Source of the DNA: Deferribacteres bacterium
Lineage (GTDB): Bacteria > Zhuqueibacterota > Zhuqueibacteria > Zhuqueibacterales > Geothermadaptataceae
Assembly (NCBI GenBank): GCA_020633655.1
Contig: JACKDF010000005.1
Coordinates: 321,424 to 385,423, forward strand
DNA length: 64,000 nucleotides
Reading direction: 5' to 3'
Every line of letters begins with the position of its first letter. Position 1 is the first letter of the stretch. The notes below the pieces were generated by a model. That model did no database searches. It saw only the letters and a program-made list of their open reading frames with translations, and had not been told where the DNA came from. Positions 6,453 to 51,208 of the stretch are shown in pieces. Both the position numbers and the translations under genes were made by a program.

Positions 6453-7751
6453 ATGAAAAACAATCTAAAACGGTTGTTTATTGGGTCAATGCTCGCTGCT
6501 GGATTATTGACGTATAATAATTCAGTCCAGGCTGGCGGATTTAACCTCTATGAATTCGGTGGACGGGCCTCTGCGCTTGCAGGCGCAATCGTTGCTCAAT
6601 CCGCTGATGCTTCAACAGTTTTTTACAATCCTGCAGGTGTCGCTTTCCTTGACAACAGCCAATTCTATGGTGGAGTCACATTGATTTTCCCCACAGCAAA
6701 CTTTGTTGGTGTATCTCCAATGTTTGATAATACAGTCCATGATGCTGTACAAAATATATTTACCCCGGTTGGAATTTACTATGCTCATAAATTAAATGAT
6801 AAAGTGGGATTTGGTATTGGACTAACCAACCCTTTTGGGTTGGGATTGGAATGGGAAGATGATTTTCCGGGTAGAGCGATTTCTCGGAATGCACTCGTTG
6901 AATCCTATTATATTTCCCCGGTTGTAGCGTACAAAGTAACCCCGAATTTCAGTATAGGTGTTGGGGCTGATTTAGTCATTGCTAAAATTGATTTAATTCG
7001 CAATATAAACGTTTTTGACAGTGAAGGTTCTCCCGGTTATGACGTTGGTGAAGTTGAGTTGAGTGGCAGTTCTGATCTTTCCTATGGGTTTAGTTTTTCG
7101 GCGCAATATCAAGCTGAAAAATGGTCTGTTGGTTTTATGTACCGCAATGGTATAACAAATGAATTTAAAGATGGCGATGCAGCTTTCGCTTTCCATGACG
7201 ATCTTACCGTACCGCAAGCGGCGGCTGTTGCCGGTGCTTTGTTACAAGATCAGCATGTAAGTACAACCCTCGATTTCCCCGGATTCTTCTCTGTAGGTGC
7301 CAGCTATCAGGCAATGGAAAAATTGCGGGTTGAAATGGATTACATGTGGTTCCAGTGGTCCGTTTTTGATCAGCTTCAACTCGATTTCGAAAATGAGAGC
7401 ACACCGGACCAAACAATTCCTTTTGATTATGAGGATTCCTGGCAATTGCGTTTGGGTGGTGAATACGCGCTCAATGAGAAGTTAGACTTGCGTGCAGGTT
7501 ATATCTTCGATAAAACACCACAGCCAATTGAATCAGTAAGCCCACTGCTTCCCGATGATGACCGTCATGATATTAGCGTTGGTATAGGTTACAAAACTGG
7601 CCGTTATGTCATCGATGCTGGATACATGTTCGTTAATATTGGTGAACGCAGTACGGTTGAAAATGGTGTTGGTATGAACCATAATGGATTTAACGGAACA
7701 TACAACTCCCGTGCTGATCTGTTCTGGGCAAGCTTTGGTGTGAACTTCTAA
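6453..7751 (+). CDS. outer-membrane long-chain fatty acid / hydrophobic compound transporter (FadL/TodX/OMPP1 family)
   Basis: 432 aa. Signal peptide, N-terminal GGFNLYEFGGRASALAGA...VFYNPAG motif, alternating beta-strand pattern, C-terminal Phe. Confidence 0.85.
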   Translation: MKNNLKRLFIGSMLAAGLLTYNNSVQAGGFNLYEFGGRASALAGAIVAQSADASTVFYNPAGVAFLDNSQFYGGVTLIFPTANFVGVSPMFDNTVHDAVQNIFTPVGIYYAHKLNDKVGFGIGLTNPFGLGLEWEDDFPGRAISRNALVESYYISPVVAYKVTPNFSIGVGADLVIAKIDLIRNINVFDSEGSPGYDVGEVELSGSSDLSYGFSFSAQYQAEKWSVGFMYRNGITNEFKDGDAAFAFHDDLTVPQAAAVAGALLQDQHVSTTLDFPGFFSVGASYQAMEKLRVEMDYMWFQWSVFDQLQLDFENESTPDQTIPFDYEDSWQLRLGGEYALNEKLDLRAGYIFDKTPQPIESVSPLLPDDDRHDISVGIGYKTGRYVIDAGYMFVNIGERSTVENGVGMNHNGFNGTYNSRADLFWASFGVNF

Positions 7752-17109: not shown

Positions 17110-19581
17110 ATGCCTGTTGAACAATTCTATTACGACAATCGCATAACGCGAAATTTTGCGATTGCAACAATGCTCTGGGGCGTTGTAGGCATGCTTGTGG
17201 GTATAATTGTCGCGCTGCAAATATACCTGCCGGAGTTAAATCTTGGCATTGCCTATACAACCTTTGGCCGCCTGCGCCCGCTTCATACGAATGCGGTTAT
17301 TTTTGCTTTTGCCGGAAATGCTATTTTTATGGGCATCTATTACAGTTTGCAAAGACTGTGTAAAGCCCGTATGTGGAGCGATTTTCTCAGTAAATTTCAT
17401 TTCTGGGGCTGGCAATTAATTATCGTTTCTGCTGCATTAACTTTGGTTTCAGGAATCACAACCTCTAAAGAATATGCAGAGCTTGAATGGCCAATCGATA
17501 TCGCAATTGCAGTGGTTTGGGTTGCCTTTGCAGTGAACATGTTTGGAACCATTATCAAACGTCGTGAGCGTCACATGTACGTTGCTATCTGGTTCTACAT
17601 TGCAACGGTTGTTACTGTTGCTGTGCTGCACATTTTCAACTCCCTTGAATTGCCCGTTTCCTTTCTGAAAAGTTATTCAGTTTATGCCGGTGTTCAGGAT
17701 GCTCTTGTTCAATGGTGGTATGGTCACAATGCTGTGGCTTTCTTTTTAACAACACCATTTTTAGGCTTAATGTATTACTATCTGCCCAAAGCCGCAAATC
17801 GCCCGGTATTTTCCTACCGTCTGTCAATTGTCCATTTCTGGGCGTTGATTTTCATTTACATTTGGGCTGGACCCCACCACTTGCTGTATACCTCATTGCC
17901 AGATTGGGCTCAAACATTAGGTATGGTATTCAGCTTAATGCTCATTTCACCCTCATGGGGTGGTATGCTTAACGGATTATTGACCTTGCGTGGTGCATGG
18001 GATCGTGTACGTGAAGATCCAATACTTAAGTTCATGGTTGTTTCCGTAACGGCATACGGGATGTCAACATTTGAAGGACCGATGCTTTCTATTAAAAGTG
18101 TGAATGCCCTGTCGCATTATACGGACTGGACAGTTGCCCACGTTCATGTTGGTACCCTTGGCTGGAACGGATTTCTCACGTTTGGCGTTGCCTATTGGTT
18201 ATTTCCACGAATCTACAAAACCAAACTGCATTCTGTTTCACTGGCAAACCTGCACTTCTGGATAGGAACGCTCGGTATCTTGTTCTGGGTTATCCCGATG
18301 TACTGGGCCGGTATTACACAAGGTTTGATGTGGAAGCAGTTCACCAGTGATGGCCTCTTGCAATATCCGAACTTCCTTGAAACCGTATTGCAAATCGTTC
18401 CAATGTATATTATTCGTTCCATCGGTGGAACCATCTATTTTGTGGGTGTTTTGATCGGTGTTTACAATTTATATAAAACAGCGAAGAGTGGAAGTCTGGT
18501 AGCTGATGAAGCTGCAGAAGCACCAGCACTGGAGCGCGAAGAAGGCGCTCATGGCCATATTTACTGGCACCGTTGGATTGAAAGTCGTCCAATGCGTTTT
18601 CTGGTGGTAACATTGATCGCAATTCTTATTGGTGGCATGGTAGAGATTATTCCTTTCCTGACCGACAAGAGTCAGATTCCGACCATCGCGACAGTTAAAC
18701 CCTATACACCACTTGAGCTTGAAGGGCGTGACCTCTACATCCGTGAAGGCTGTAACAATTGCCACTCGCAAATGGTGCGTCCATTCCGCTCTGAAACAGA
18801 ACGTTATGGTGAATATTCAAAAATTGGTGAGTTCGTTTATGATCACCCATTCCTGTGGGGATCAAAACGTACTGGCCCAGATTTGCAACGGGTCGGTAAA
18901 AAGTACCCCGATGGCTGGCATTTCAACCATATGCGCGATCCTCGTTCGATGTCTCCCGGTTCTTTGATGCCACCGTATCCATGGTTGATCAGCAATACGC
19001 TGGATGCAAGCAACATCAAAGGCAAGATTAGCGCAATGCGTACACTTGGTGTACCTTATGAGGAAGGTTACGAGGATAAAGCTGAAGCCGATATGAAGGC
19101 ACAAGCAGAAACTATCGTAGCCAATTTAAAAGCCTCAACAGTTGAGACGAGTGCAGACAAAGAAATAGTTGCCTTGATCGCTTTTTTACAGCGTCTTGGC
19201 ACGGATATCAAAGTAGGCAAAGAAGTTGAGACCACAGATATTAGCTCCTTACCAGTTCCGGATGTCACCGCCCTCACGGACGATGCAAGCATCGAAAGTG
19301 GTAAAGCGATCTGGCAGAAAAACTGCGTCGTCTGCCACGGCGATCAGGGACAAGGTCTCATTGGTCCAAACATGACCGATAAATACTGGATTCATGGAAA
19401 TGGGAGTATTGGTACAATCCTGAATGTTATTCGTGAAGGTGTGCCTGCGAAAGGGATGATTTCATGGAAATCAACCTTAACAGAGAAAGAAATGCTTCAG
19501 GTAGGCAGCTTTATCCTGGCAAAATTGCAGGGAACAAATCCGCCAAATCCAAAAGCACCTGAAGGTAATCTGGTCGAATAA
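17110..19581 (+). CDS. ccoNO: cbb3-type cytochrome c oxidase, fused CcoN-CcoO with an extra C-terminal mono-haem cytochrome c domain
   Basis: 823 aa. A multi-TM CcoN part (HVHVGTLGWNGF) comes first. The CcoO part follows, with a TM helix plus YIREGCNNCHSQMVRPF. The last ~110 aa carry a second CxxCH (NCVVCHGDQG) and are paralogous to the CcoP haem domain. Confidence 0.93.
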   Translation: MPVEQFYYDNRITRNFAIATMLWGVVGMLVGIIVALQIYLPELNLGIAYTTFGRLRPLHTNAVIFAFAGNAIFMGIYYSLQRLCKARMWSDFLSKFHFWGWQLIIVSAALTLVSGITTSKEYAELEWPIDIAIAVVWVAFAVNMFGTIIKRRERHMYVAIWFYIATVVTVAVLHIFNSLELPVSFLKSYSVYAGVQDALVQWWYGHNAVAFFLTTPFLGLMYYYLPKAANRPVFSYRLSIVHFWALIFIYIWAGPHHLLYTSLPDWAQTLGMVFSLMLISPSWGGMLNGLLTLRGAWDRVREDPILKFMVVSVTAYGMSTFEGPMLSIKSVNALSHYTDWTVAHVHVGTLGWNGFLTFGVAYWLFPRIYKTKLHSVSLANLHFWIGTLGILFWVIPMYWAGITQGLMWKQFTSDGLLQYPNFLETVLQIVPMYIIRSIGGTIYFVGVLIGVYNLYKTAKSGSLVADEAAEAPALEREEGAHGHIYWHRWIESRPMRFLVVTLIAILIGGMVEIIPFLTDKSQIPTIATVKPYTPLELEGRDLYIREGCNNCHSQMVRPFRSETERYGEYSKIGEFVYDHPFLWGSKRTGPDLQRVGKKYPDGWHFNHMRDPRSMSPGSLMPPYPWLISNTLDASNIKGKISAMRTLGVPYEEGYEDKAEADMKAQAETIVANLKASTVETSADKEIVALIAFLQRLGTDIKVGKEVETTDISSLPVPDVTALTDDASIESGKAIWQKNCVVCHGDQGQGLIGPNMTDKYWIHGNGSIGTILNVIREGVPAKGMISWKSTLTEKEMLQVGSFILAKLQGTNPPNPKAPEGNLVE

Positions 19582-25028: not shown

Positions 25029-25209
25029 CTAGCCTGCTTTATTCGTAAATCCAAGATTGGGGGCTGTGTCAAAACATGAATTAACGGCCGTAACTCGACA
25101 TTTATGTCGTAAGTTTAAGCTTAAAAATGAGCGACATGAATGTCGAGTTACATGTTTTGACTCAGCCCCCATCGCTAACTTTGAGCATTGTATGAATAAA
25201 GCAGGCTAG
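25029..25209. repeat. MITE-like long imperfect hairpin element, full copy A
   Basis: The termini CTAGCCTGCTTTATTC (25029-) and GAATAAAGCAGGCTAG (-25209) are exact inverted repeats. The subterminal GGGGGCTGTGTCAAAACATG (25059-25078) pairs with CATGTTTTGACTCAGCCCCC (25151-25170). There is also an inner GTAACTCGACAT/ATGTCGAGTTAC stem. Confidence 0.75.
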
Positions 25210-35268: not shown

Positions 35269-36288
35269 TTATTGTCCTTTGCCCTTGTCTTTCTTTTTTA
35301 ATTTCTTCACTTCTTTATCAAAATCAGAAATGAATTTTTCATCCTGAATAATGCGGAATTTTTCATATTCCTTTTCAGCGGTTTCTTTGGCAACGGCGGC
35401 AGAAACTTGGCCGGGGTTGTTCAACACATCGTATTGATTAAACTGCAGAAAGGCATCCAAACGTTCTGCCCATTCCTGCATTTTTATTGGGATTTGCCGT
35501 TCTGCCTGTAATTCTGCAAAATCCAAATACATGGTAACAATACGGTTAAGATTGCGGATTTCTTTTTCATTAAGATAATTCTTGGCAACGGTAACATCAG
35601 ATTTTAAGACTTTACCTTTAGGTGCGTTTTTCCAGGTTGTCAATCCCATGTGGTCCTTAGCGGAATCTGCTCGCTGGGCAATTATTTCAGCTGCTGTGTT
35701 TCCGGTGATGGCCCAGTGCAATTTATTCTGGACTGTTTTGTAGAAAAGTTCGGTTACTGTAGACTGCGGATCGTAATCAATGCTACATTGGGCATAAATA
35801 TCCGTAATCTTCTGGTAGAAGCGGCGTTCACTGGCACGAATTTCCCGGATGCGTTCCAGCAATTCATCAAAGTAATCTTTGCCAAACAATGTGCCGCCCT
35901 GTTTTAGGCGCTCATCATCCAAAGCAAAACCTTTGGTGATAAATTCCCGCAATACGCGGGTTGCCCAGATACGGAACTGCGTTGCCCGGGAAGTATTTAC
36001 CCGATAGCCGACTGAAATAATAGCGTCCAGATTATAATATTCGAGATTGCGGGAGACCTGGCGCTCACCTTCGGTTTGAACTGTCAAGATTTCTTTGACA
36101 GTTGCTTTTTTGCCTAACTCATTTTCTTTGAAGATATTTTGCAGGTGGTAACTGATATTTTGTTTGGTTGCCCCGAACAGTTCAGCCATTTTATTGATTG
36201 TTAACCAAACTGTCTCTTCCCGTACAAGGACTTCTACCTTAACATTACCCTGCGGTGTTGTATATAAAATGATCTCAGAATTTTTCAT
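35269..36288 (-). CDS. rhuM: RhuM family (virulence-associated, Fic/DOC-neighbourhood) protein
   Basis: 339 aa. Characteristic N-terminus ...VKVEVLVREETVWLTINKMAELFGATKQNISYHLQNIFKENEL...YNLDAIISVGYRVNTSRATQFRIWATRVLREF. Confidence 0.88.
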   Translation of the reverse strand: MKNSEIILYTTPQGNVKVEVLVREETVWLTINKMAELFGATKQNISYHLQNIFKENELGKKATVKEILTVQTEGERQVSRNLEYYNLDAIISVGYRVNTSRATQFRIWATRVLREFITKGFALDDERLKQGGTLFGKDYFDELLERIREIRASERRFYQKITDIYAQCSIDYDPQSTVTELFYKTVQNKLHWAITGNTAAEIIAQRADSAKDHMGLTTWKNAPKGKVLKSDVTVAKNYLNEKEIRNLNRIVTMYLDFAELQAERQIPIKMQEWAERLDAFLQFNQYDVLNNPGQVSAAVAKETAEKEYEKFRIIQDEKFISDFDKEVKKLKKKDKGKGQ

Positions 36289-36545
36289 GTTTCACTTTCA
36301 ATTTCATAATTCTCATACGCTTCTTTTGACAACGGAAAAGCCGGATCAATCACCAGAACTTCGTCGTAGTTGAGTTGGTAGAGTTTGTAAACCAGAAAAT
36401 CAATTTTAGATTTTAGTTTTTTAAATTCTTTCTCACTGATTTCTGGTTGAAGTAGTTGATTTACAATTTTAGTAAACACATTTTGTTTGTCACTGGATGC
36501 TGTTTTAATTGGGATTTTTTTCCAATCATCAGGATAAAAATCCAA
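36285..36545 (-). pseudogene. 3'-terminal fragment of a restriction-modification (type IIG/TaqI-like or BREX-type) methyltransferase gene
   Basis: The C-terminal ~85 aa of ORF 36285..36761 (DFYPDDWKKIPIKTASSDKQNVFTKIVNQLL...KSKIDFLVYKLYQLNYDEVLVID) match the conserved tail of such enzymes. The upstream half of that ORF is just the antisense of the intron 5' end. Its stop overlaps the rhuM start (ATGA). Confidence 0.5.
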
Positions 36546-36743
36546 GTGTGTGCCCGGCATGGCACGTGTGTATTTTGAATATCGAAATATACGCAGATTA
36601 TCCAGAGGGTGCAAGTCCCTTATGGGCAAGTTGGCGAAGCCCATTAGCAAGCCGCAAGGGTGTTCCGGGTGACCGGAAATCTGAAGGAAGCGATACTGCA
36701 AGAATCTGTGCGGAGGAATACAAACTGCATATGAGGCATAGCA

Positions 36744-38018
36744 TTGTGGGTAAGTAACCACTTCTTTACAAAGCCCGTAGCCAACAAACTTTGCTATGTA
36801 GATGCAGCAGGAGTCGACGGCAGATCAGTTAACAATCTGTCTTCCTATTTGAAAACGCACTGGAGTTCGATCAAAGAAAGGGTGGAGTCTGGCCGCTATG
36901 AACCTGATGCGATATTGGGTGTGGAAATTCCCAAGAGCAATGGGAAAACCCGGCTTTTGGGTGTTCCAACAGTTGTTGACCGCTTGCTGCAGCAGGCATT
37001 ACATCAACAACTGAGCCCGATATTCGAAAAGGATTTTCAGGAACATAGCTATGGTTTTCGTCCGAACCGCAATGCACATCAGGCGATTAAACAGGCGCAC
37101 AAGAACATCAATGACGGCTATCAGGATATCGTCGATATCGATTTGAAGAGCTTCTTTGATGAAGTGAGCCATGAATTGCTGATGACATTGATATACCGAA
37201 GAGTGAAGTGCCCACTGACCTTGAAACTGATTCGGAAATTTCTTCGAGCACCTATTCAAAAGAATGGGAAACTGGAGAAACGACGCAAAGGCGTGCCACA
37301 GGGTAGCCCACTGAGTCCTTTACTGTCCAATATCATTCTGAATGAATTGGATAAGGAATTGACGAAGCGTGGCCACCGGTATGTGAGATACGCCGACGAT
37401 TTCAGTGTGTACCTCAAGAGCAAGACGGCAGCGAGACGTGTTGGAAATAGTATTTACTTGTTCCTACGCGATGAACTCCGTTTGCCGATTAATCGCGAGA
37501 AAAGTGGAATCCGTCGTCCGAGTAAGTTTTACATGCTTGGTTATGGTTTTGTGCCGGTATTTTGCAAAGGCTCAAAGGGACAGTACCAACTGGTTGCGGA
37601 CATCTTTGCCTTGAAAAGGTTAAAAGAGAAGATCAAATGGATCACCCGCAAGACGACCCCGATGACCTTTGATGAACGGATAGCAAAACTGAACCAGGTA
37701 ATGAAAGGTTGGATGCACTATTTCAAGTACGCAAATATGCATGCAAAACTGCGAGTCATTGATGTCTGGATACGCCGTCGTTTGCGTGGTTGTATCTGGC
37801 ATGATTGGAAGAAACCGAACCGCAAGATGAAGAATCTGATGCGTTTGGGAATTCCGAAAGGGATGGCTTATGCATGGAGCAGAACGCGTATGGGAAGATG
37901 GGCTGTGGCTTGTAGTCCGATATTGAGTACAACGATCACGATTGGTCGTTTGGAAAGTCGTGGCTATGTGTCGCTGGAATCATACTATCTGAAAGTTCGG
38001 AAGACTGTAGGTTCGTGA
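36744..38018 (+). CDS. group II intron reverse transcriptase/maturase (no endonuclease domain)
   Basis: 424 aa. AAGVDG, RLLGVPTVVDRLLQQA, YGFRPNRNAHQA, the YADD box (VRYADDFSVY), and maturase domain X (MKGWMHYFKYANM...RRRLRGCIW). The N-terminal ~20 aa are atypical and the start is a TTG. Confidence 0.9.
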   Translation: MWVSNHFFTKPVANKLCYVDAAGVDGRSVNNLSSYLKTHWSSIKERVESGRYEPDAILGVEIPKSNGKTRLLGVPTVVDRLLQQALHQQLSPIFEKDFQEHSYGFRPNRNAHQAIKQAHKNINDGYQDIVDIDLKSFFDEVSHELLMTLIYRRVKCPLTLKLIRKFLRAPIQKNGKLEKRRKGVPQGSPLSPLLSNIILNELDKELTKRGHRYVRYADDFSVYLKSKTAARRVGNSIYLFLRDELRLPINREKSGIRRPSKFYMLGYGFVPVFCKGSKGQYQLVADIFALKRLKEKIKWITRKTTPMTFDERIAKLNQVMKGWMHYFKYANMHAKLRVIDVWIRRRLRGCIWHDWKKPNRKMKNLMRLGIPKGMAYAWSRTRMGRWAVACSPILSTTITIGRLESRGYVSLESYYLKVRKTVGS

Positions 38019-38238: not shown

Positions 38239-40845
38239 TTAACTTTTGTAAACCATTGCATGTTCATCGGGATTGAACCCTTTTGGGAATTTGGTATCAC
38301 CATCAAAATAAGCACCCTTAAGCTTAGTTCTGTTTAAATTCGTTCTACTGAGGTTTGTTGCTCTGAGATCAGCTCCGCTGAGGTTTGCGTTTTTAAGCCT
38401 GACCCTATCAAGTTTTGCATTTCGAAGATTTGTGTTAGTAAGAAAGGCTCCACTGAGATTAGCTTCACTTAAGTTTATTCCACTGAGGTCCATCCCGCTG
38501 AGATTCACTCCGTTGAGTTTACTTTTGCTAAGATTTACTCTATTAAGGTTTGCTCCCCTAAACTTGGCCATATAAAAATCACTACCGCTGAGATTTGCTC
38601 CACTAAAGTCAATCTCACTCAAATCAGCTCCTTTAAGGATAACTCCACTCAGATTGGCTCCTTGATAATCAACTCCACTGAGATTAATTTTCATTAAGTC
38701 AGTTCGCTTTAGATTTGATTTTTTATTATTTATTCCATTAAATTTCATTCCCTTGAGATTAGCTTGCTTTAGATTTGATGCTTTATTATTTATTCCATCA
38801 GGTATAATTTTTCTTATATCAGTTTGTTTTTTTTTATCTTTTATTATACTATTATCGGTAAAAATAATTTCATTTAAATTGACTCCATTATGATCGATCT
38901 CTTTAATGTCTATTCCGTGAAAATTAGTTTGAAAAAGAATGCTGCCTTTCAGGTTGATTCCTTGGATATTAGCATCCTGTAAATCAGCATTACTGAGATT
39001 AGCCATACTGAAATTTGCTCCATTGAGGATAGCTTTACAAAGTTTAGCTCCTTTGAGATTTGAATAACTGAGTTCAGCATTTGTTAAAATAGAACTAGTA
39101 AGATTTGCCCCAGCAAGACTGGTATTATTGAGATTAGCACTTTTGAGATCAGCATTGCTAAGATTAGTTCCTTCCAGATTTGCTCCTTTAAGATCAGCAT
39201 TACTTAAGCAGATACCTTCAAGATCAGCACCACTGAGATAAGCTTCATTAAGTATACTATCGCTTAGGTTGGCATTACAAAGAATTACTTCACTAAGAGT
39301 TGCATTATTTAATTTGGCTCTACGAAGATCTGCTTTTCCTAGGTTAGCTTCACTGATGACAGCACCTTTTAGATCTGCATCCCTAAGATTTGCTTCAGTG
39401 AGTACAGCTTCCATGAGATTAACATTATTTAAATTAGCACCCATCAGGTTTGCTCTAACTAGTTTAAGTCCACTTAGATTGCAATCACTGAAATTCAATC
39501 CAGTAAGGTCTGCTTCGCTGAGATCTATTTCTTGACTATAATGTAACTTAACTAATTCAGCGACAAATTTTTTTATTTGATCTGTCCAATCAAGAAAAAC
39601 GCGATCTTTTACTGGTAATTTAACAAAGTAATTTATGAAAAGGAATTCAAGGATTGATCTATGGGAAAACTTGTAATTCCCATAACCATCTCTATTTAAG
39701 AGGGATCGAGAACTGAGTTCAAGTTCATTTAGATCAATTTTATGAGTTAAAGCGAAAGGTACTAGCTCATGTCGTGGAATTTGACCATTATTTTCCTTTT
39801 GATAGCGATATAGGTGATTTGCAAGTGCTTCAGAAAATCGTCGGAGTGCGACTTTATCACTTATGCGTTCACGGTTGATCCAATGTATAATAATTTCTTC
39901 ATAGATATCATAACTATTTTTATATTCTTTATTAGGATCCATAAAACTCGACATATATTTTAACAACATTGGACGCAAAGCAAGGCTTGGTGCAGCTGAA
40001 ATGATTTGCCAAGCTTTTCTTCGCAGTTTATAATTTAAAATAGAGTATTTTTTCTTGATAAATTTTTGTACCTGCTCATCATTAAATGGAAGCAAGTATT
40101 GAATTGTAAACATTCTGTATCCATCACTTTGATCGGCATTGATGTTTGGTATTGAAGTTTTTCGTTTTATTGCTGCTGAATTAGGAAAAAATTGTGTACG
40201 GCTACTGATTAAAACTCTATTGAAACCTTCTGTTATATCTACCAACTGATTATAACGTGTATTAATACTCTCTATTGCAAATGGGTCTTCATCAAAAGCA
40301 TCGAGAAAAAGAATTGTATTTTTTTTATTCTCTATGTTTTTGATACATTGATCTACATTTTTTGCGTTAAGTCTGAGTACAATAATTTGTTTTTTGCTAA
40401 ATTTCTTATGTCGATAATTACGCATAAGTATATTAATCAAGGCAGCCGTTTTCCCGGTACCAGAATCTCCTAGTAAATACATATGTCGATTCTTTGCCCC
40501 TTCAGACAGAAATTCATCTATTTTTGTAAATAGTTTTTCATGTTTTTTCTCTCCATAGATTTTCTTAAGGTCCTCAGTATAAGATGGGTCACTCGGTGAA
40601 CAATACGGTTCAATATAAATATCAGTATAGCTTTTAATAGTTTCTTCATCAAAAAACTCAAACGTTATTTCATTGTTAATAATTTTTAACGCTTTATTGT
40701 CTTTCCATTTAGTTTTTAACTCTAAAATAGTTTTTATAATTATCAGTATAGTACTGATTCCCCCTATTATTTTTAAAATGGTAAATTGTTTTATATCGAA
40801 TATGTTTGTTAGAAGACTAATTATATCCTGGTTGTGAAAAAACAT
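38239..40845 (-). CDS. STAND NTPase: N-terminal TM helix, NACHT-type P-loop module, long C-terminal pentapeptide-repeat array
   Basis: 868 aa. TM helix at ~aa 22-42. Walker A LLGDSGTGKTAAL, Walker B ILFLDAFDE, then VLISSRTQFF and LLPFNDEQVQKFI (NACHT order). From ~aa 445 there are about 80 A(D/N)LxG-type pentapeptide units, interrupted once by a Lys-rich linker. Confidence 0.85.
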   Translation of the reverse strand: MFFHNQDIISLLTNIFDIKQFTILKIIGGISTILIIIKTILELKTKWKDNKALKIINNEITFEFFDEETIKSYTDIYIEPYCSPSDPSYTEDLKKIYGEKKHEKLFTKIDEFLSEGAKNRHMYLLGDSGTGKTAALINILMRNYRHKKFSKKQIIVLRLNAKNVDQCIKNIENKKNTILFLDAFDEDPFAIESINTRYNQLVDITEGFNRVLISSRTQFFPNSAAIKRKTSIPNINADQSDGYRMFTIQYLLPFNDEQVQKFIKKKYSILNYKLRRKAWQIISAAPSLALRPMLLKYMSSFMDPNKEYKNSYDIYEEIIIHWINRERISDKVALRRFSEALANHLYRYQKENNGQIPRHELVPFALTHKIDLNELELSSRSLLNRDGYGNYKFSHRSILEFLFINYFVKLPVKDRVFLDWTDQIKKFVAELVKLHYSQEIDLSEADLTGLNFSDCNLSGLKLVRANLMGANLNNVNLMEAVLTEANLRDADLKGAVISEANLGKADLRRAKLNNATLSEVILCNANLSDSILNEAYLSGADLEGICLSNADLKGANLEGTNLSNADLKSANLNNTSLAGANLTSSILTNAELSYSNLKGAKLCKAILNGANFSMANLSNADLQDANIQGINLKGSILFQTNFHGIDIKEIDHNGVNLNEIIFTDNSIIKDKKKQTDIRKIIPDGINNKASNLKQANLKGMKFNGINNKKSNLKRTDLMKINLSGVDYQGANLSGVILKGADLSEIDFSGANLSGSDFYMAKFRGANLNRVNLSKSKLNGVNLSGMDLSGINLSEANLSGAFLTNTNLRNAKLDRVRLKNANLSGADLRATNLSRTNLNRTKLKGAYFDGDTKFPKGFNPDEHAMVYKS

Positions 40846-41450: not shown

Positions 41451-44024
41451 TTAAAGAAATATAATTTCCTTGGGTACCCCATTTTCAAATTCTATCATCA
41501 ACCTCTTATCAAAATGATTATTAGTAAAAGTTACATGAAAATCTATATACTTTTTCAGTCCATCGCCAAATGCAACATTTCCAGTTTGTTGAAAGATATG
41601 ATCCATTTTAGAACTAATGTCCTGTATACTATCTAACTTTGCTTGCGTTTTATTTTGCTCAGCAATCATAATTGACTGAACTGATATTTCACATATTTTA
41701 CAAACTTGATCAGGTTGAATATCTGTATTCTCAATAGAAGTGAATCCCAGCATTTCATTTTTATTTAATAATTTCAAATTAGTTAAGACTGAGCCTGATG
41801 TATTCTTAATACTAATTATAAATTTTCCTGCTAAAACATCAAAATTTCCAATTTTTTCGATAACACATTTTAATTGATTAACTTTATTAATTTCAGGAAT
41901 ACTCTTAGTTTTAATAAAATTATTTTTTATTTCGTAACTATTGGTATTGAGCGACAATACCAAATCGTCATATTTTGAATAAAATTCATTTACTATTTCT
42001 TGTTTTGAGAGTTTGTTTTTACGTTCTTTTACAAAGCTCGATAACAAGCTTTCTTCTTTAGTAAATGTTGAATCAGATAACTTCTCAAATGAATCTAGAA
42101 TTTCAGGTGCTAATTTTTCTACAAGGATAATAGTTTCAGTCGTATCTTGTAGATAATCTGGCATATTCGCAGTAAGACAAAATAGTAAAATATTTGTCCA
42201 TGCCAATTCGGTGTCATTAGTCATTAAGTAGTTAAGACATAGTGTCCTATAGACTGATGCGAAAAGAGGTTTAAGACCAATAGCCTTTTTAGCAAATTCT
42301 ATAGATTTGTTATGTATTGATTTAATATAATAAAGCTGTGAGAGTTTAATATAGGGATACGGATTATTTGGAGCAAGTTCTAATGCCGCATTATAATAAT
42401 TAAGAGCCTGTTCGATATTATCTTTACGTTCATAAACTCTCCCAAGTTGAAAAAAAATCACAGGATCTGAAGGAGCTATTTCTTTCGCTTCCATAAGGAT
42501 TTCTATACAATTATCAAAATTTGCACTAAAAAGATATGCATCTGATAATCGATAGTAACCTAACATTTCTTCAGGTTCTTTTCGTATATACTGACGAAAA
42601 TAGTGTATTGCTCCCTCATAGTCACCTTCTTTCATATAACTTGTACCTAAAAACAAAGATACTCCAGCATTTGTAGATTTTATTATATCTTCATTTTTTT
42701 TTATTATTTGCAGAATTTCATCTGGTGTAATATTTTTATTTTCAAGGAATTGATCCCATGCGCTTGAAGGAGCTCTTAATATTTGTTCAGCCAGACTATC
42801 ATTAAAAGAGTTTATATAAACAACATTATCTCTATGATCTTGAGATATATAAAAAAGCTCAAAATTATTTGTTTCGCTGATTCTCTCAACTTCATCTTCA
42901 AAAAATCCTATTGTAAATTTAAAATTGAAGTATCCAGAATATTTTGAGTTGAAATCAACTAGTATATTTTGACCATCTTTAGATTCTATTACTATATATT
43001 TATTTCCTAAAACAGAACTTATTTTCTTTTTTGGATCAAGATTAACATGAAAAATTTCCCTATCAAACACACCTTTGGCTAATGATCCTACTACAATTCT
43101 TCTTGGAAGCTTTTCATAATTATTTAAAATTAACTCAATTTTGTCAATAGAAATCTGTTTTTCACTTTTATTAAAGAAAAAGAATTTTATTGGATCTCTG
43201 AATCTATCCTCTGAATAACCTTCTAAAGGAAGTAACCGAACTTTCTTTAATATTCCTTTTTCGATACAGTATGCATATTTATATGGGGGAGTAAAATGAT
43301 AAGCCGTTTTAATTGAAAGAGATTTGGATATAAGGGGTTGTTCAAAGACATTTATTATAATATCTTTACTTGAAAATATTTTTGATGATTTGTCAGTGAA
43401 ATGAAGAGAAATATTGCTAGCTCCAACATTTTTCCCCTTAATAATCATACTAATTTTATGCGTGCTATTTTTGTTTAGTTTTACTAGCTGTTCTAAATTT
43501 AATAATTCTATTGATACTATTTGATGATTCATTGTTATAGAATGTAGTTTTATATTTTCAATATCGCGCGTTCCTGTATTTCTCAACATTATATCCAAAT
43601 TTAATTCTTCATGAACTTGAATCTTATATTGGGATTTGTTTTCAATATGAAAAACATCTAATTTTGAATCACTACTAGTAGTGCTGTTGTTTGTCATTCT
43701 ATCAATATTTAAACTATCTAATTGAATTTCGTCTCTATCCTGAATTTTGCTCTCAGAGTTACTATTTACATTGACTATCTCCAGTTCTTTTTCTCCAAAA
43801 TATTGATAGTATATTTCTGTTGCCTTATCAATATTTGTAAGAAGTCCTATTATAGTGGTAAAAAAAGCAATGATCACACTTAATTTTGCTATTAACCATT
43901 TTCTTGGATTTCTGTGTTGCCAACATTTTGAATATGAACTAGTTGATTTAAGTTTTCTATTACATTTCTTTCCTGATTTAAGTATATGTTCACATTGCTT
44001 GTAAGATAATATAGTTTTTTCCAT
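41451..44024 (-). CDS. hypothetical 857-aa protein: Cys/His-rich N-terminus, one TM helix, beta-rich region, TPR repeats, unknown C-terminal domain
   Basis: The N-terminus reads CEHILKSGKKCNRKLKSTSSYSKCWQH, and the TM helix is WLIAKLSVIIAFFTTIIGLL. TPR-like repeats span ~aa 465-610 (GDYEGAIHYFRQYI..., ALNYYNAALELAPNNPYPY...). The gene is very AT-rich. Confidence 0.7.
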   Translation of the reverse strand: MEKTILSYKQCEHILKSGKKCNRKLKSTSSYSKCWQHRNPRKWLIAKLSVIIAFFTTIIGLLTNIDKATEIYYQYFGEKELEIVNVNSNSESKIQDRDEIQLDSLNIDRMTNNSTTSSDSKLDVFHIENKSQYKIQVHEELNLDIMLRNTGTRDIENIKLHSITMNHQIVSIELLNLEQLVKLNKNSTHKISMIIKGKNVGASNISLHFTDKSSKIFSSKDIIINVFEQPLISKSLSIKTAYHFTPPYKYAYCIEKGILKKVRLLPLEGYSEDRFRDPIKFFFFNKSEKQISIDKIELILNNYEKLPRRIVVGSLAKGVFDREIFHVNLDPKKKISSVLGNKYIVIESKDGQNILVDFNSKYSGYFNFKFTIGFFEDEVERISETNNFELFYISQDHRDNVVYINSFNDSLAEQILRAPSSAWDQFLENKNITPDEILQIIKKNEDIIKSTNAGVSLFLGTSYMKEGDYEGAIHYFRQYIRKEPEEMLGYYRLSDAYLFSANFDNCIEILMEAKEIAPSDPVIFFQLGRVYERKDNIEQALNYYNAALELAPNNPYPYIKLSQLYYIKSIHNKSIEFAKKAIGLKPLFASVYRTLCLNYLMTNDTELAWTNILLFCLTANMPDYLQDTTETIILVEKLAPEILDSFEKLSDSTFTKEESLLSSFVKERKNKLSKQEIVNEFYSKYDDLVLSLNTNSYEIKNNFIKTKSIPEINKVNQLKCVIEKIGNFDVLAGKFIISIKNTSGSVLTNLKLLNKNEMLGFTSIENTDIQPDQVCKICEISVQSIMIAEQNKTQAKLDSIQDISSKMDHIFQQTGNVAFGDGLKKYIDFHVTFTNNHFDKRLMIEFENGVPKEIIFL

Positions 44025-44264: not shown

Positions 44265-46052
44265 TTATTTTCCCCGCCGGAACGCTAACCATGCCAGGAC
44301 CAGAAAACCACTGGTTGACAAACCGATGGCAAGGATTGTAAGGAAACTGATTTCCCGGGAAATTATGAGCTTGTAGGGATCATCCCGGTCATACCAACAC
44401 GGTACAATAGCTCCCAGTTTGTTTTCTCTAAAGAATTGAAAGGATGCTGCTGCACTCGATATAACGTCGCCCTCTGGTGTTGCGTACCGTGCGGCTATTA
44501 TCGGCATTTGGTGGATCGTGGTTGTGGAACGACTTGTACGGCTTCCGCTCGTCGTTACGGATTTTAAGTAAAAACGACGGTCGAGAATCACTGCTTCCGA
44601 CTTGTCATAATTGGTATAAAGATGCACAGTTTCCATTATCAGTGTGTATGTTATAAGGGCGAAAAGCAACGAGAAAATACCCGCATTCAATCGACCGGCA
44701 ACCCTGGTGAAAGGATGTTTTCTACCCAGAAAATGCCAGGAACCGGCCCAAATCATAATTAGTAAGGGGAAGCTGAAAATCAAAAACAAACTAGCGACGG
44801 TTCCATCGACATATTCTGATTCCGATAATGGCTGACTCAGGTTTAAAAACAGGTCTTCTTCCTCGGAATAGGTTAACACGTTCCGAGCCCGCACATCAAC
44901 AGATAAATCGCCGGTGTCCCAGGCATCCCGAACAAAGATTCGCATGGTGAGAAAACCACTACTGCGTGCAGGCAGTGCTAACAACGGCCAATCAATTTTT
45001 TGGTCCAGTTGTGCCTGATAGGGATTAATAATTTTGCCATTATGCGATGTGCCAACAAACAAAGCTTCCGAATTCAAGGTGGCTTCAACTCTTACAACCC
45101 GTTTTGTGTCTGTATCGTTGGTTAAGCGGATTTTAAGTTCAGCCAGGTCACCGTGCTTCAACGGATCCGGATTTACACTAATTTTTGCAGGCGTTAATGA
45201 ACTTGTACTGTCCAGCTCTATCTGGTCTAACCAGTCCTGTCGCGCATGGCTCAGAAAATTCAGATTCTCGTTGCGATGAATGCTGCCATGGGCATAGTTA
45301 ACAAGCAGCTTGTCGACTTCCGAACTGTTACCCAGCCAATCCGCGACCGTTCGGCCGAAATCATCGACCGCGTTCACCTCGGCGCCATTTTCTGCTAATA
45401 TTTTTACCAGCTTTGGATTTGCTTCATAAACGTACATAAGCGGCGTTCTGCCGTTGTCATCCCGGGCATTTGGATCAGCACCATTGGAGAGCAGGACACT
45501 GGCTATCTCCTCGTTGTGCGTTCGCATCAATAATGTGGTTCCACCTTCCCCACGGGTATCCGGATTCAGCCCCGATTCAAGCAAAGGCTGCAGCATTTCC
45601 GGGGTTTTGGCATCATCAATTAGAGGGCGTCCAAAAGAATCCCGCGGTTCCGGATCACCTAAACCGACCCAGGCCAATTTGCGCACCAATGGCAGGTTGT
45701 CATTGTACATGGCCCGGTCAAGAAGCCGGGCCCGTTCTTCAAGAATTGGCCAGCCAAGGGGTGTTTTTAAAAGCAGGCTATCCGGCCATGCGGGAACGAG
45801 AGTTAATGCGCCTAAAATCAGGAGAGCTAAACTTCCAAGAATTGATACCGCATTTATTGGATGCGTCAGAAATGATTTTAATAACTTTTTCAGACCGAAA
45901 TAAATCAGGATTCCACCTATAAAACTCAGGAAAATAACACCCGCCAGGGGGACCAATCCGTAGAGAAGCCAGACATGCCCTACGGTTATTATCAGATAGA
46001 AAACCGTACCTGTCCAGCCTGGTTTGTCACGTTGCGCCTTGTTCTTTTTCAT
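44265..46052 (-). CDS. polytopic membrane protein with ankyrin repeats and a C-terminal DUF3592-like module
   Basis: The ORF track starts at a TTG at 46121. The ATG at 46052, preceded by AAAGGAGA, gives MKKNKAQRDKPGW... There are N-terminal TM helices and ANK repeats (GGTTLLMRTHNEEIASVLLSNGADPNARDDNGRTPLMY...LAENGAEVNAVDDFGRT). The C-terminal region is a beta-rich segment bracketed by TM helices. The DUF3592 assignment is tentative. Confidence 0.75.
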   Translation of the reverse strand: MKKNKAQRDKPGWTGTVFYLIITVGHVWLLYGLVPLAGVIFLSFIGGILIYFGLKKLLKSFLTHPINAVSILGSLALLILGALTLVPAWPDSLLLKTPLGWPILEERARLLDRAMYNDNLPLVRKLAWVGLGDPEPRDSFGRPLIDDAKTPEMLQPLLESGLNPDTRGEGGTTLLMRTHNEEIASVLLSNGADPNARDDNGRTPLMYVYEANPKLVKILAENGAEVNAVDDFGRTVADWLGNSSEVDKLLVNYAHGSIHRNENLNFLSHARQDWLDQIELDSTSSLTPAKISVNPDPLKHGDLAELKIRLTNDTDTKRVVRVEATLNSEALFVGTSHNGKIINPYQAQLDQKIDWPLLALPARSSGFLTMRIFVRDAWDTGDLSVDVRARNVLTYSEEEDLFLNLSQPLSESEYVDGTVASLFLIFSFPLLIMIWAGSWHFLGRKHPFTRVAGRLNAGIFSLLFALITYTLIMETVHLYTNYDKSEAVILDRRFYLKSVTTSGSRTSRSTTTIHQMPIIAARYATPEGDVISSAAASFQFFRENKLGAIVPCWYDRDDPYKLIISREISFLTILAIGLSTSGFLVLAWLAFRRGK

Positions 46053-46418
46053 TTTAATTATTTCGTCTCCTTTTAAGTGCTCTAAAAATCTGATATGCGG
46101 ACATACGGAAGTAACAGCCAATAGAAGTCATCCCATGATTCGATAAAAACCATCACACCGAGTTGAATGCGGTCAAAACAAAATGACTACAGGCTAGTAA
46201 TCACAGGACAAAACATTGCTATATGACCTTCTTTACCAGGTTCACTTCAGGACTGTGTACTTAATAAACCGGTTGTAGAAGTTATCTCATCCTGTCTAGG
46301 AATGCAAGGATCATTTGGGGCTTTGCCGGAAATAAGACAATATGAATACGCAAGTTACTACTACTTCTTTGGCAAATTCGAGTTTTGCCTAAAAAATAGG
46401 TAAGAGGAAAACAACCCT

Positions 46419-46660
46419 TGACGAGGCCGTCGAAAAACATGCAAATTCGGACCCTGAGCTTGTCGAAGGGCCCGAATTCGAGCGTGGAACCGGGTATTTT
46501 GACACGTCGACTTTACTCAGTGCAGGCAGGCTCAATGTCCGGTTTGTCCCTTTTTCAACAGTTTCGAAAGGATTGCGATTTTACAGAAACTCTTTTACTC
46601 TGGACTCACCAAACCTGAATTATTCTCACGCGCAGAGTCGCGGAGCCCGCTGAGAAAAGC
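46419..46660. repeat. cluster of GC-rich hairpin repeat sequences inside a 0.8-kb noncoding spacer
   Basis: Hairpin AATTCGGACCC...GGGCCCGAATT (46444-46478) containing CCCTGAGCTTGTCGAAGGG; then CTCAGTGCAGGCAGGCTC (46517-46534); then TCTCACGCGCAGAGTCGCGGAGCCCGCTGAGA (46624-46655). Confidence 0.5.
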
Positions 46661-46893
46661 TTTGATGAATTACAAAATATGGCTCTGTATCCTTTTCGAT
46701 TCGACGTTTATCTTTTCGAACTTATTCTTATTCTTGCATGAATAACAGCGGAAAAATCAGTGGTCAGTTTGTGGAAGATGGCAGACAATCTTGAAGGATT
46801 TATCCGTTGAATTAATCGAGAGAATATCCTATCATAAGCAGTCTTTTTCACAGTTCTACAATAAAAAATTTTCCTTCGGCTGGGAGAGTCTGA

Positions 46894-47829
46894 ATGGCGG
46901 TTTCAAAACAACGGCGACTTTTTACGATTTATGCACAAGGTGATCTGGCAGCAGCACAGAAATTGAAACAGCAATTCGCCGAAGTGCAGATCAAGTTGGG
47001 AATCGATCTCGACCGGCGGGTGGACAGCCACGCGTTTTCAGCAGACAAATGTACGGCCTTGCGAAACAGCGATGCGGCCCTTGTTCTCTGGTCGCAATAT
47101 GCAGCCGAGTCGCTTTGGGTGGAAGTTGAAATCCGTGGTGCAGAGGATTTGCACAAACCAGTGATATTGCTGCACCTCGAAGATTTTCCCCTGAATGTGA
47201 ATATGCATCCTGATCTCATCGTAAGTCCTGAGCCTGTTGAAAAGGTGCGAAAACGCATCGTTCACTTTTTAAACCGGCAAAAGGCACGACATCAAACACA
47301 TTCGTTAACACATGACCAATCGAATAATCCTTTCGCCTTGCGGAGTTCCGCTGTAAAACGGTTTAATCCGCTTTCTTTGGAGCATATGGCCCAGAAGCTT
47401 GGTTTCTTTGAAAAAACATTGAATCCCGATGGTTACGGAGTGCGGCATCAGTACGAAAGCGTGGAAGACGGGCGTCTTCTACACGACTATGCAACCGGAT
47501 TGATGTGGCAGGTTGCGGGCTCCGCCCATGAGATAAATTACGAAGTGGCCGCGGGCTATGTGGACGATTTGAACCGCGAGCGCTACAGTGGCTTTCGCGA
47601 GTGGCGCCTGCCTACGGTGGAGGAAGCCCTGTCTTTGCTCGAACCAACGCACTATGAACATGGTCTCTACCTCGATCCACTTTTTGGTGCGTTGCAAAAA
47701 TCCATCTGGACATGCGATGCATTCTCCGGGGAACATTGGACATTGAATTTCAGTGTCGCGCAATGCTTTTTACAGGGCTCTGGCACTGAGCACTTTGTAC
47801 GCGCGGTGCGAACACTCGAAACGCTTTAG
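46894..47829 (+). CDS. TIR-like domain fused to an Lcl_C/DUF1566 (lectin-like) domain
   Basis: 311 aa. The N-terminal ~105 aa fit the TIR_2 pattern (LFTIYAQGD...AAQKLKQQF...SDAALVLWSQYAAESLWVEVEI...KPVILLHLE). The C-terminal part has the DUF1566 hallmarks TGLMWQ ... FREWRLPTVEEALSLL. Confidence 0.65.
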   Translation: MAVSKQRRLFTIYAQGDLAAAQKLKQQFAEVQIKLGIDLDRRVDSHAFSADKCTALRNSDAALVLWSQYAAESLWVEVEIRGAEDLHKPVILLHLEDFPLNVNMHPDLIVSPEPVEKVRKRIVHFLNRQKARHQTHSLTHDQSNNPFALRSSAVKRFNPLSLEHMAQKLGFFEKTLNPDGYGVRHQYESVEDGRLLHDYATGLMWQVAGSAHEINYEVAAGYVDDLNRERYSGFREWRLPTVEEALSLLEPTHYEHGLYLDPLFGALQKSIWTCDAFSGEHWTLNFSVAQCFLQGSGTEHFVRAVRTLETL

Positions 47830-47945
47830 TTGCAAAACAAAACTCCTTGTTTAATCCATGAAATACACGCTCAATGCGATAAAATCAAAGCGCATTGAAC
47901 GTATTTCATTGTTCGAAAAAATAATAACCTGGCAAAATAATTTCT

Positions 47946-51010: not shown

Positions 51011-51208
51011 TAACCTGTTTTATCGATGCAATAAGCAAAGTAAACGTGGGCCTGTGTCAAAACATAAATAGAACGAAGGTTTCCCGCCACGGGGTACGTG
51101 CTTTACACTCAGCGAGGACGCTTTCACTCTAGTAAAATAGCTGTTTGGGTCAAAAATAATGTGTTTTGACTTAGCCCCAATCATGGTGTTCATGAATAAA
51201 GCAGGTTA
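51011..51208. repeat. MITE-like long imperfect hairpin element, full copy B
   Basis: The termini are TAACCTGTTTTAT... and ...ATGAATAAAGCAGGTTA. The subterminal GGGCCTGTGTCAAAACAT (51048-51065) pairs with GTGTTTTGACTTAGCCCC (51161-51178). The terminal and subterminal motifs match copy A at 25029-25209, but the core differs. Confidence 0.7.

Follow-up and report, generated by a model that had tools for sequence, protein, structure and literature searches.

Predictions assign antigen binding in bacterial immune receptors to lectin-fold domains, and most of the candidates are large multi-component systems that involve STAND NTPases, MoxR-vWA modules or diversity-generating retroelements (DGRs). 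Kaur et al. (eLife 2020, eLife 2021) predicted two kinds of intracellular invader-sensing lectin-fold domain, FGS, which has the C-type-lectin fold, and NPCBM (PMC7159879, PMC8195603). These domains are fused to TIR domains or kinases, or stand C-terminal to STAND NTPases that carry an N-terminal TIR, caspase, trypsin, kinase or EAD8 domain, and they are often linked to DGRs (PMC7159879, PMC8195603). DGR-diversified CLec domains have been proposed by Doré et al. (PNAS 2024) as antigen sensors of multicellular bacteria (PMC10907252), some reported DGR targets with CLec domains also carry TIR (PMC10907252, PMC7517822), and FGE-sulfatase-like sensors also occur in defence-associated STAND proteins (PMC12803255). 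DUF1566 is known as a "category d" target domain of DGRs, mainly in surface lipoproteins such as Legionella LdtA (PMC5758913), and the C-terminal domain of Legionella Lcl is a trimeric, C-type-lectin-like, glycosaminoglycan-binding head (PMC11162425). Here we describe a gene of a Deferribacteres bacterium in which a DUF1566/Lcl_C domain is joined to an N-terminal TIR domain (TIR-Lcl_C). The gene lies on the forward strand at positions 46894..47829 of a 64,000-nucleotide stretch (contig JACKDF010000005.1 of assembly GCA_020633655.1, positions 321,424 to 385,423), which is referred to below as the window.

The window protein has the same syntax as the FGS and NPCBM proteins, namely an effector, an optional STAND NTPase and a C-terminal lectin-fold domain. 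Its family also has the same bias to filamentous and multicellular lineages and the same link to DGRs, and TIR-Lcl_C and TIR-FGE-sulfatase genes are adjacent at one locus, L004. It differs in that the sensor is DUF1566/Lcl_C (PF07603) and not FGE-sulfatase (PF03781) or NPCBM, and in that the protein has no NTPase, EAD, vWA/MoxR partner or DGR. With the CLec DGR proteins of Doré et al. and of cyanobacteria it has in common a C-terminal CLec variable domain and N-terminal effector or signalling domains that include TIR; the CLec subtype here is DUF1566, "category d / CLec2". Relatives on two contigs, L017 and L006, are genuine targets of DGRs; for the window gene no DGR is present in the window, and its specificity is apparently fixed. 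A literature search returned no paper linking DUF1566 to TIR and none treating DUF1566 as an intracellular sensor, and the term "DUF1566" is absent from the text of PMC7159879. The preliminary description of this DNA, which was made from the sequence alone, had stated that it knew of no described system with a DUF1566 partner; this stands for DUF1566 itself, but not for lectin-fold domains at large, for which TIR precedents exist (PMC8195603, PMC7159879, PMC10907252, PMC7517822). The DUF1566-TIR combination is therefore apparently unreported but, given the predicted FGS, NPCBM and CLec precedents, does not constitute a new category of sensor-effector.

The coding sequence is complete, with 311 codons and a stop, as judged from the open reading frame (ORF) list, the sequence, a 99%-identical sequence (P0001) and the 45%-identical full-length orthologs P0002 and P0056. 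It starts with ATG, and GGGAGAG (46882-46888) lies 5 nt before the start. The motifs quoted in the preliminary description are all present in the protein, SLWVEVEI at residues 73-80, TGLMWQ at residues 201-206 and EWRLPTVEEALSLL at residues 236-249.

TIR is a fold that cleaves NAD in many immune proteins. The TIR domain of the window protein, residues 1-134 (46894..47295, +), was delimited from an AlphaFold2 model, Foldseek, a family profile and Pfam. The full-length model, built from 45 sequences with a mean predicted local distance difference test score (pLDDT) of 86.9, contains a five-stranded α/β domain at residues 7-135, with a pLDDT of about 85-90 in the TIR region. Strands βA (7-12), βB (33-36), βC (61-66), βD (90-94) and βE (108-110) form the flavodoxin-like parallel sheet with intervening helices that is typical of TIR, followed by a C-terminal helix at residues 115-135; the domain is short, and no helix is present between βD and βE. 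The top Foldseek matches in the PDB were the TIR domains of SARM1, Caenorhabditis elegans TIR-1, TLR15, ThsB, RPS4, RPP1 and AbTir, with E-values of about 1e-4 to 2e-3. An entry titled "7cm7, Sarm1 E642A" is among these fold matches, and the search also returned the related DNPH1/nucleoside deoxyribosyltransferase fold. Structure prediction thus confirmed the TIR fold that had been proposed for the N-terminal region.

The sequence of the domain is divergent. An exhaustive HMMER search with it against 1.8 billion representative proteins gave only 25 matches at E<=1e-3, six of which we discarded as TPR proteins spuriously aligned to "YAQGDLAAAQKL". This segment (residues 11-22, 46924-46959) is helix αA of the TIR domain; it mimics the TPR_10/TPR_12 consensus and draws in false positives. 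A word-index homolog search with the N-terminal 134 residues found no match and missed even the 99%-identical twin, and is uninformative, and a single-sequence phmmer search against the PDB also returned no match; family profiles were needed. A profile of 20 clean family members matched AbTir at E=7e-12, followed by TIR-STING, Cat1, PdTIR, TcpB, Toll-like receptors and SARM1, with about 60 further solved TIR chains matched beyond AbTir. In Pfam, 19 of the 24 scanned sequence relatives match TIR_2, and orthologs clear its cut-off at 34.9 and 38.7 bits. The fold matches and the family profile together bear out a genuine, but divergent, TIR domain.

The motif W75-V-E-V-E79 (47116..47130, +), the counterpart of the WxxxE motif in helix αC of NADase-type TIR domains, in which the codon of the putative catalytic Glu79 occupies 47128-47130, was identified from family conservation and from alignment to TIR NADases. 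S67 and E79 are invariant in 20/20 family TIR domains and in 6/6 TIR-Lcl_C proteins; F10, D17 and S73 are at least 90% conserved in the 20-member alignment, and W75 is conserved as well. E79 aligns with the Glu of "WTNYEL" in AbTir, "WSKFEM" in TIR-STING and "WCWDEL" in Cat1, which we take to be the catalytic Glu of TIR NADases (AbTir E208, SARM1 E642). A Glu in the NADase catalytic position had been noticed earlier within ESLWVEVEI, and of the three Glu residues of that string the catalytic equivalent is the last, E79. Neither of the outcomes that the preliminary description had named as refuting, the lack of a TIR match for residues 1-110 or a Glu out of register with the catalytic position, was seen. 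A linker of residues 135-158 (47296..47367, +) follows the domain; it is poorly conserved, with 17% identity to orthologs, and is modelled with low confidence (pLDDT <50 at residues 135-143).

The C-terminal part of the protein is an extended Lcl_C/DUF1566 module with a C-type-lectin-like fold, residues 159-311 (47368..47826, +). The Pfam Lcl_C (PF07603) match itself covers residues 196-306 (nt 47479-47811) with E=1.1e-15 and 58.4 bits against a cut-off of 34.9, and the TGLMWQ and WRLPTxEE motifs are invariant across 38-74 relatives. The module exceeds the Pfam model, in that residues ~147-195 hold a conserved pattern, "LRS...FF[DE]...N..G...Y", which is found in all relatives whatever their N-terminal domain; its well-ordered part starts at about residue 159. 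A stand-alone AlphaFold2 model of residues 143-311 has a pLDDT of 95.9 and a predicted template-modelling score of 0.91. Its best structural match in the PDB is the C-terminal domain of Legionella Lcl (8q4e_A, E=2.9e-3, template-modelling (TM) scores 0.45/0.57), followed by dozens of C-type-lectin-like domains of snake-venom proteins, natural killer (NK) receptors and LOX-1, all with modest E-values; the Lcl_C family profile searched against PDB sequences again found 8q4e (E=0.0022). Taken together, these results uphold the C-terminal DUF1566/Lcl_C assignment of the preliminary description. The top viral matches of the module are phage DUF1566 proteins and tail fibres.

The Legionella pneumophila Lcl domain (8Q4E) is thus the best match of the module in both structure and sequence, with a common WRLPT...VRAVR core, although the similarity is remote, at 17% identity and TM 0.45-0.57. 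By motif and spacing, the conserved W205 would correspond to Lcl Trp315 at the trimer interface, and R238 and E244 to the Arg338-Glu344 salt bridge. Lcl is secreted, carries a collagen-like stalk, forms trimers and binds host glycosaminoglycans, whereas the window protein is predicted to be cytoplasmic and is fused to TIR.

Within the module, residues 276-300 (47719..47793, +) form a variable tip, which we defined from column entropy, ortholog identity and alignment with the variable repeats of the L017 and L006 DGRs, to which it is equivalent. The tip has the highest column entropy in the family alignment. Among the trio of orthologs, identity is 28-38% in the tip, 54-64% in the Lcl_C core and 91% in the VRAVR tail, so that the tip is the fastest-diverging structured segment of the protein. 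From this pattern, the tip (residues ~276-300) is probably the ligand-contact surface.

The TIR-Lcl_C architecture is also present in P0001, P0002, P0005, P0014, P0023, P0037 and P0056. A scan of reference genomes, with one genome per species, detected at least 507 relatives of the Lcl_C subfamily; the best 80 of these belong to Calditrichia, KSB1, Scalindua/Brocadia, filamentous or multicellular Desulfobacterales, Moduliflexus, Nitrospirota and Cytophagia. Among 74 full-length ORFs of close Lcl_C relatives, the recognisable N-terminal partners are TIR (11), protein kinase (7), NACHT/STAND NTPase (4-5), trypsin (4), caspase (2) and nucleotide cyclase (1). The family thus combines an N-terminal effector, from an interchangeable set of TIR, kinase, NACHT, trypsin, caspase, EAD8 and cyclase partners, with a C-terminal lectin-fold domain. 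In every case Lcl_C is the last domain, and this holds for the NNH2-NACHT-Lcl_C, NACHT-Lcl_C and nSTAND5-Lcl_C proteins too; because the extreme C-terminus is where STAND/NLR proteins carry their sensor, Lcl_C occupies the sensor position. Compared with STAND/NLR receptors such as Avs and bNACHT, the window protein lacks a central NTPase, its TIR and Lcl_C domains being separated by a linker of only ~25 residues, although NACHT-Lcl_C and nSTAND5-Lcl_C relatives exist.

Two distinct TIR clades are fused to this one Lcl_C subfamily, the clade-B TIRs having escaped the search with the window TIR. The fusion therefore arose or was shuffled more than once, and the combination of TIR and Lcl_C would so have been repeatedly selected. 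Some loci lie beside defence- or conflict-type genes: P0005 adjoins a DruA fragment and IS66, and P0023, an EAD8-TIR-Lcl_C protein, adjoins a type I restriction-modification system. P0037 belongs to a tandem array in a Desulfobacteraceae metagenome-assembled genome (MAG; L004:1-4668) composed of a TIR protein truncated where the contig stops, TIR-Lcl_C, TIR-FGE-sulfatase and a vWA protein, so that two different C-type-lectin-fold sensors stand side by side on paralogous TIR proteins. At L085:6001-9912 a caspase-Lcl_C gene (P0016) is convergent with, and slightly overlaps, a larger gene for a caspase-domain protein (765 aa); this pair was seen on two independent contigs.

The survey of neighbouring genes yielded two reverse transcriptases (RTs), one on L017 (Candidatus Zhuqueibacter pondensis, KSB1) and one on L006 (an uncultured Cytophagia MAG). 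The TIR domains of these two loci are the nearest to the window clade outside its orthologs. Both begin with the gene of a ~620-aa Lcl_C protein, which is followed by a small ORF, the RT and finally TIR-Lcl_C, and the 3' end that the two Lcl_C genes have in common recurs as a third copy just upstream of the RT. The cassettes occupy L017:3520-7026 and L006:3135-6957 and have two targets each, the ~620-aa Lcl_C protein and TIR-Lcl_C. In L017, the 96-nt template repeat (TR, 4376-4471) and the variable repeat (VR, 6931-7026) of TIR-Lcl_C differ by 10 mismatches, all on TR adenines, and the VR of the other target, a 610-aa Lcl_C protein, also has 10 mismatches to the TR, all on adenines. Only 24 of the 96 TR bases are adenines, yet 20/20 mismatches fall on them. 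In L006, 9/9 TR-VR differences in 64 nt are on adenines. Both RTs carry the DGR hallmarks IGNLTSQ and YVDD, and the small ORF of L006 resembles the Avd accessory protein. The adenine-only mismatches and the RT hallmarks identify both loci as DGRs that hypermutate the last ~30 residues of Lcl_C, and the VR segment aligns with residues ~276-300 of the window protein.

On contig L013, which belongs to the same genome, two additional targets (4746-4842 and 6895-6993) match the L017 TR, and this suggests that the TR serves to diversify at least four genes, in trans. In L006 the VRs at 3135-3249 and 6818-6932 are identical to each other, and both have a 2-nt insertion relative to the TR that shifts the frame, with loss of the conserved VRAVR tail; this could be recent gene conversion, a MAG consensus artefact or a disabled target.

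The ortholog P0002, at 45% identity, adjoins the same downstream block of FAD-oxidase, ThiI and TrmI genes as the window gene. The flanking proteins of the two loci are 63%, 80% and 77% identical, so TIR-Lcl_C has evolved faster than its neighbours. P0001, which comes from another sample and is 99% identical to the window protein, has three differences, all in the linker (residues 138, 140 and 153).

Because the tip of the lectin domain is hypermutated by DGRs in relatives, TIR-Lcl_C is most likely a pathogen sensor and effector. We give about an even chance to the specific reading that it is a cytoplasmic single-protein ligand sensor wired to a TIR NADase, with an immune role in the infected cell. 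In its favour we can show both folds, the conserved catalytic motif, the sensor position that Lcl_C takes in many effector and STAND proteins, DGR hypermutation of the tip in relatives and an evolution faster than that of the neighbouring genes; the two TIR clades, the loci beside defence-type genes and the published FGS and NPCBM predictions point the same way. The NADase activity, the ligand, the oligomerisation step and the part in immunity are inferred. Read from the sequence, the protein has no signal peptide, membrane segment or hydrophobic leader, and βA begins as early as residue 7, as expected of a cytoplasmic protein. In the mechanism that we propose, the C-terminal Lcl_C module would be the sensor, and its variable face (residues ~276-300) would bind a specific macromolecular ligand, most plausibly a protein or glycoconjugate of a phage or another invader. 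Ligand-driven clustering or oligomerisation of the Lcl_C modules would then bring the TIR domains together. TIR enzymes form their active sites by the coming together of TIR domains, and activation by ligand-induced oligomerisation is established for effectors of the TIR-STING, TIR-SAVED and Cat1 type. Glu79 would cleave NAD+, resulting either in its depletion or in a nucleotide signal, and the infected cell would arrest or die. The oligomerisation step is modelled on TIR-STING, TIR-SAVED, SARM1, AbTir and the trimeric Lcl head. With TIR-STING, TIR-SAVED, Cat1, AbTir and SARM1 the window protein shares a TIR domain with the catalytic Glu and the fusion to a ligand-binding domain, and the window family profile matches structures of this group. 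The sensors of TIR-STING, TIR-SAVED and Cat1, however, bind small nucleotide messengers made by a partner enzyme, whereas the lectin-like sensor of the window protein presumably binds a macromolecule directly and has no partner gene.

Several observations weigh against this reading. CLec-type intracellular sensors include none that has been experimentally characterised (PMC10907252), and the only characterised Lcl_C domain is extracellular, trimeric and glycosaminoglycan-binding (PMC11162425). No defence model of PADLOC or NCBIfam matches the window protein. Of the profile searches that check the TIR domain, those with the family profile and with orthologs succeed, while the window sequence on its own matches Pfam TIR_2 (residues 13-97) at 27.2 bits, just below the 28-bit cut-off. 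The GC content of the gene is native (50%), and at least three lineages have kept it at one chromosomal site, a pattern that mobile defence genes do not typically show. An enrichment of defence genes had been expected but was not found, since the 100 neighbour ORFs of 12 TIR-Lcl_C reference loci, which were taken without a control set, are mostly housekeeping genes with no enrichment of PADLOC families. Finally, the 64-kb window contains no second copy of the 3' end of the gene, and P0001 shows no differences in the variable tip. In addition, carriage of TIR-Lcl_C by phages or plasmids was not found, the window protein having no homologs in the phage collection and one weak megaplasmid match only.

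The housekeeping-type neighbourhoods at most loci and the stable synteny would also suit a non-immune role, in which the protein acts inside the cell as the receptor of some self or environmental macromolecule, used for regulatory or kin/self-recognition signalling in bacteria of complex lifestyle, with TIR as a signalling or protein-interaction module. The multidomain CLec proteins that are diversified by DGRs in cyanobacteria, TIR-like ones included, have been read as tuning regulatory pathways (PMC7517822), and the same Lcl_C module has kinase and cyclase partners. We consider this role rather unlikely, since the TIR, caspase, trypsin, NACHT and EAD8 partners are classic conflict-system vocabulary (PMC8195603), conservation of the catalytic Glu favours an enzyme over a scaffold, and the hypermutated, rapidly diverging tip is suggestive of an arms race.

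A Thoeris-like arrangement, in which Lcl_C senses and TIR makes a cyclic-ADP-ribose-type or related nucleotide that activates a separate effector encoded elsewhere, is also unlikely. ThsB and the window TIR are both short bacterial TIR domains and have their catalytic motif in common, Foldseek matched structures of ThsB, and Pfam ThsB_TIR gives a weak match to residues 54-96 over its cut-off (23.1 against 21.2 bits); furthermore, long vertical retention would suit a non-suicidal signalling enzyme. ThsB, however, has no lectin domain, and the window gene has no ThsA partner: neither the window nor the examined homologous loci contain a ThsA-type effector (SIR2, Macro or transmembrane with SLOG), or another candidate receptor gene, beside the TIR gene. 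The matches to two Thoeris models, PADLOC ThsB (E=0.018) and NCBIfam ThcB4 (E=0.036; 12.9 bits, with a cut-off of 220), are not significant, and we rejected membership of any named defence system.

Continued diversification of the window gene as a DGR target, in trans and from a retroelement outside the 64-kb window, is improbable. The L017 TR, with its matching VRs on L013 of the same genome, and the remote variable proteins known in cyanobacteria (PMC7517822) offer models for such an arrangement. Against it, the window has no TR-like copy of the 3' end of the gene and no match to the L017 and L006 TRs, the tip is identical in P0001 despite its origin in another sample, and the only RT in the window is that of a group II intron (RVT_1 and GIIM domains, RF02001). 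On these grounds we rejected the window gene as a DGR target within the 64 kb, and it appears to be a fixed-specificity member of the family.

Slightly less probable still is an inert TIR domain or a decaying gene, the protein being a relic or decoy. The small number of relatives of the divergent TIR domain, 25 with six spurious among 1.8 billion representatives, and its shortness, with no helix between βD and βE, would fit such decay; at least four sequences, however, have an intact ORF, conservation extends to S67, S73, W75 and E79, the AlphaFold2 models are confident, and a Shine-Dalgarno sequence and a promoter-like site are present. Finally, an exported adhesin or virulence factor, with Lcl_C binding host glycans as in Legionella Lcl and TIR subverting eukaryotic TLR signalling, is very improbable: the only characterised Lcl_C does bind sulfated glycosaminoglycans on host cells (PMC11162425) and BtpA/TcpB-type TIR structures are among the profile matches, but the sequence reads as having neither signal peptide nor membrane segment, the partners of Lcl_C in relatives are cytoplasmic NACHT, kinase and caspase modules, the lineages that carry the gene are environmental bacteria, free-living and uncultured, and matches in phages and megaplasmids are limited to the weak one mentioned above.

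The gene is preceded by a spacer of 772 bp (46122..46893), the ~0.8-kb spacer to the divergent ankyrin gene of the preliminary description, with a promoter-like site at 46807-46835 found by promoter scan and the Shine-Dalgarno sequence at 46882-46888. The spacer has no Rfam match, no internal repeats and no conservation with the intergenic region of the ortholog. The long hairpin described after the gene is real; it is an imperfect, AT-rich structure with a 12-nt loop at ~47858..47909 (+) that starts 29 nt past the stop codon and precedes the FAD-oxidase gene. The 116-nt intergenic fold has a free energy of -21.3 kcal/mol (z=-2.8), and 0/200 shuffles were equally stable. The hairpin has no U-tract, the terminator scan made no intrinsic-terminator call, and the structure is missing at the ortholog locus, where 23 bp separate the gene from the next one. 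It is possibly a transcription stop or attenuator ahead of the FAD-oxidase gene. A repeated element or a DGR target-recognition hairpin was ruled out, because the sequence is single-copy in the window, AT-rich, has a 12-nt loop and is absent from the ortholog; GC-rich hairpins stand 3' of the L017 DGR VRs, unlike the AT-rich hairpin of the window.

Downstream of the gene are housekeeping genes for FAD-oxidase/Fe-S, ThiI and TrmI proteins. A functional link with the FAD-oxidase/Fe-S gene was rejected as a general feature, as the linkage is restricted to the orthologous lineage. Upstream is a variable island that comprises a RhuM-family gene, a group II intron and genes for nSTAND3-pentapeptide, TPR and ankyrin/transmembrane proteins. 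Through its RhuM/PDC-S05 and nSTAND3-pentapeptide genes, the island counts with P0005, P0023 and P0037 among the cases of proximity to defence or conflict genes. The RhuM-family gene (35269-36288, -) matches the PADLOC phage-defence candidate PDC-S05 with E about 1e-155. The group II intron (36663-38018) consists of Rfam RF02001 (D1-D4) at 36663-36828 (94.5 bits) and then an RT/maturase ORF at 36744-38018 (RVT_1 and GIIM); the 5' end of a 158-aa ORF (36285-36761, -), which weakly matches a type IIG restriction enzyme, extends into it. The product of the next gene (38239-40845, -), 868 aa long, begins with an nSTAND3/AAA NTPase and ends in a long pentapeptide-repeat region, where the gene contains a DNA repeat family (38951-39384) with spacing in multiples of 15 nt. 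It is a conflict protein of the STAND type and has no match in PADLOC. The gene is probably foreign, because its GC content is 33%, whereas that of the window is 43%. A TPR protein of 857 aa, whose N-terminal part includes a Cys/His-rich stretch (41451-44024, -; GC 28%), is likely to have been acquired horizontally as well. The 618-aa protein nearest to TIR-Lcl_C (44265-46121, -) has ankyrin repeats in its middle and, judged by eye, apparently hydrophobic, membrane-like stretches at both ends, and gives a weak PADLOC PDC-M72A match (E=4e-10) in the ankyrin region only.

The ankyrin gene was rejected as a partner, because TetR and resistance-nodulation-division (RND) efflux genes occupy its place in orthologs; P0002 and P0056 share this TetR-plus-RND upstream context, which is other than that of the window. 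No partner gene is kept across the homologous loci, in agreement with the earlier remark that the gene stands alone. Elsewhere in the window, a 47-nt inverted repeat pair with 74% complementarity (25030-25076 and 51162-51208), 26 kb apart, is perhaps a dispersed repeat element, and its second arm falls between the FAD-oxidase and ThiI genes. Two adjacent ORFs of 823 aa each (14471-16942 and 17110-19581, +) are probably tandem paralogs, and a 40-nt direct repeat with 85% identity is found at 19526 and 20449.

We put forward tentatively, and with some doubt, that DUF1566/Lcl_C is a third intracellular lectin-fold antigen-sensor family beside FGS and NPCBM, with fixed forms, as in the window, and DGR-hypermutated forms, as in KSB1 and Cytophagia, wired to a TIR NADase. 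The window protein is tractable, with 311 residues, no partner genes, confident models, a delimited variable tip and E79-dependent NAD+ cleavage as a candidate read-out, and its naturally hypermutated relatives allow comparison of the tips. It therefore makes testable both the sensing of intracellular ligands by a lectin-fold domain and the switching-on of a TIR enzyme by such a domain. If the reading is true, no two-domain "variable receptor plus death enzyme" smaller than TIR-Lcl_C would be known. About 30 C-terminal residues would determine its specificity, which is in principle reprogrammable, and the protein would offer a compact scaffold for engineered ligand-triggered NADases. For the family, it would extend DUF1566 from a domain of surface adhesins and phage tail fibres to a cytoplasmic immune sensor.

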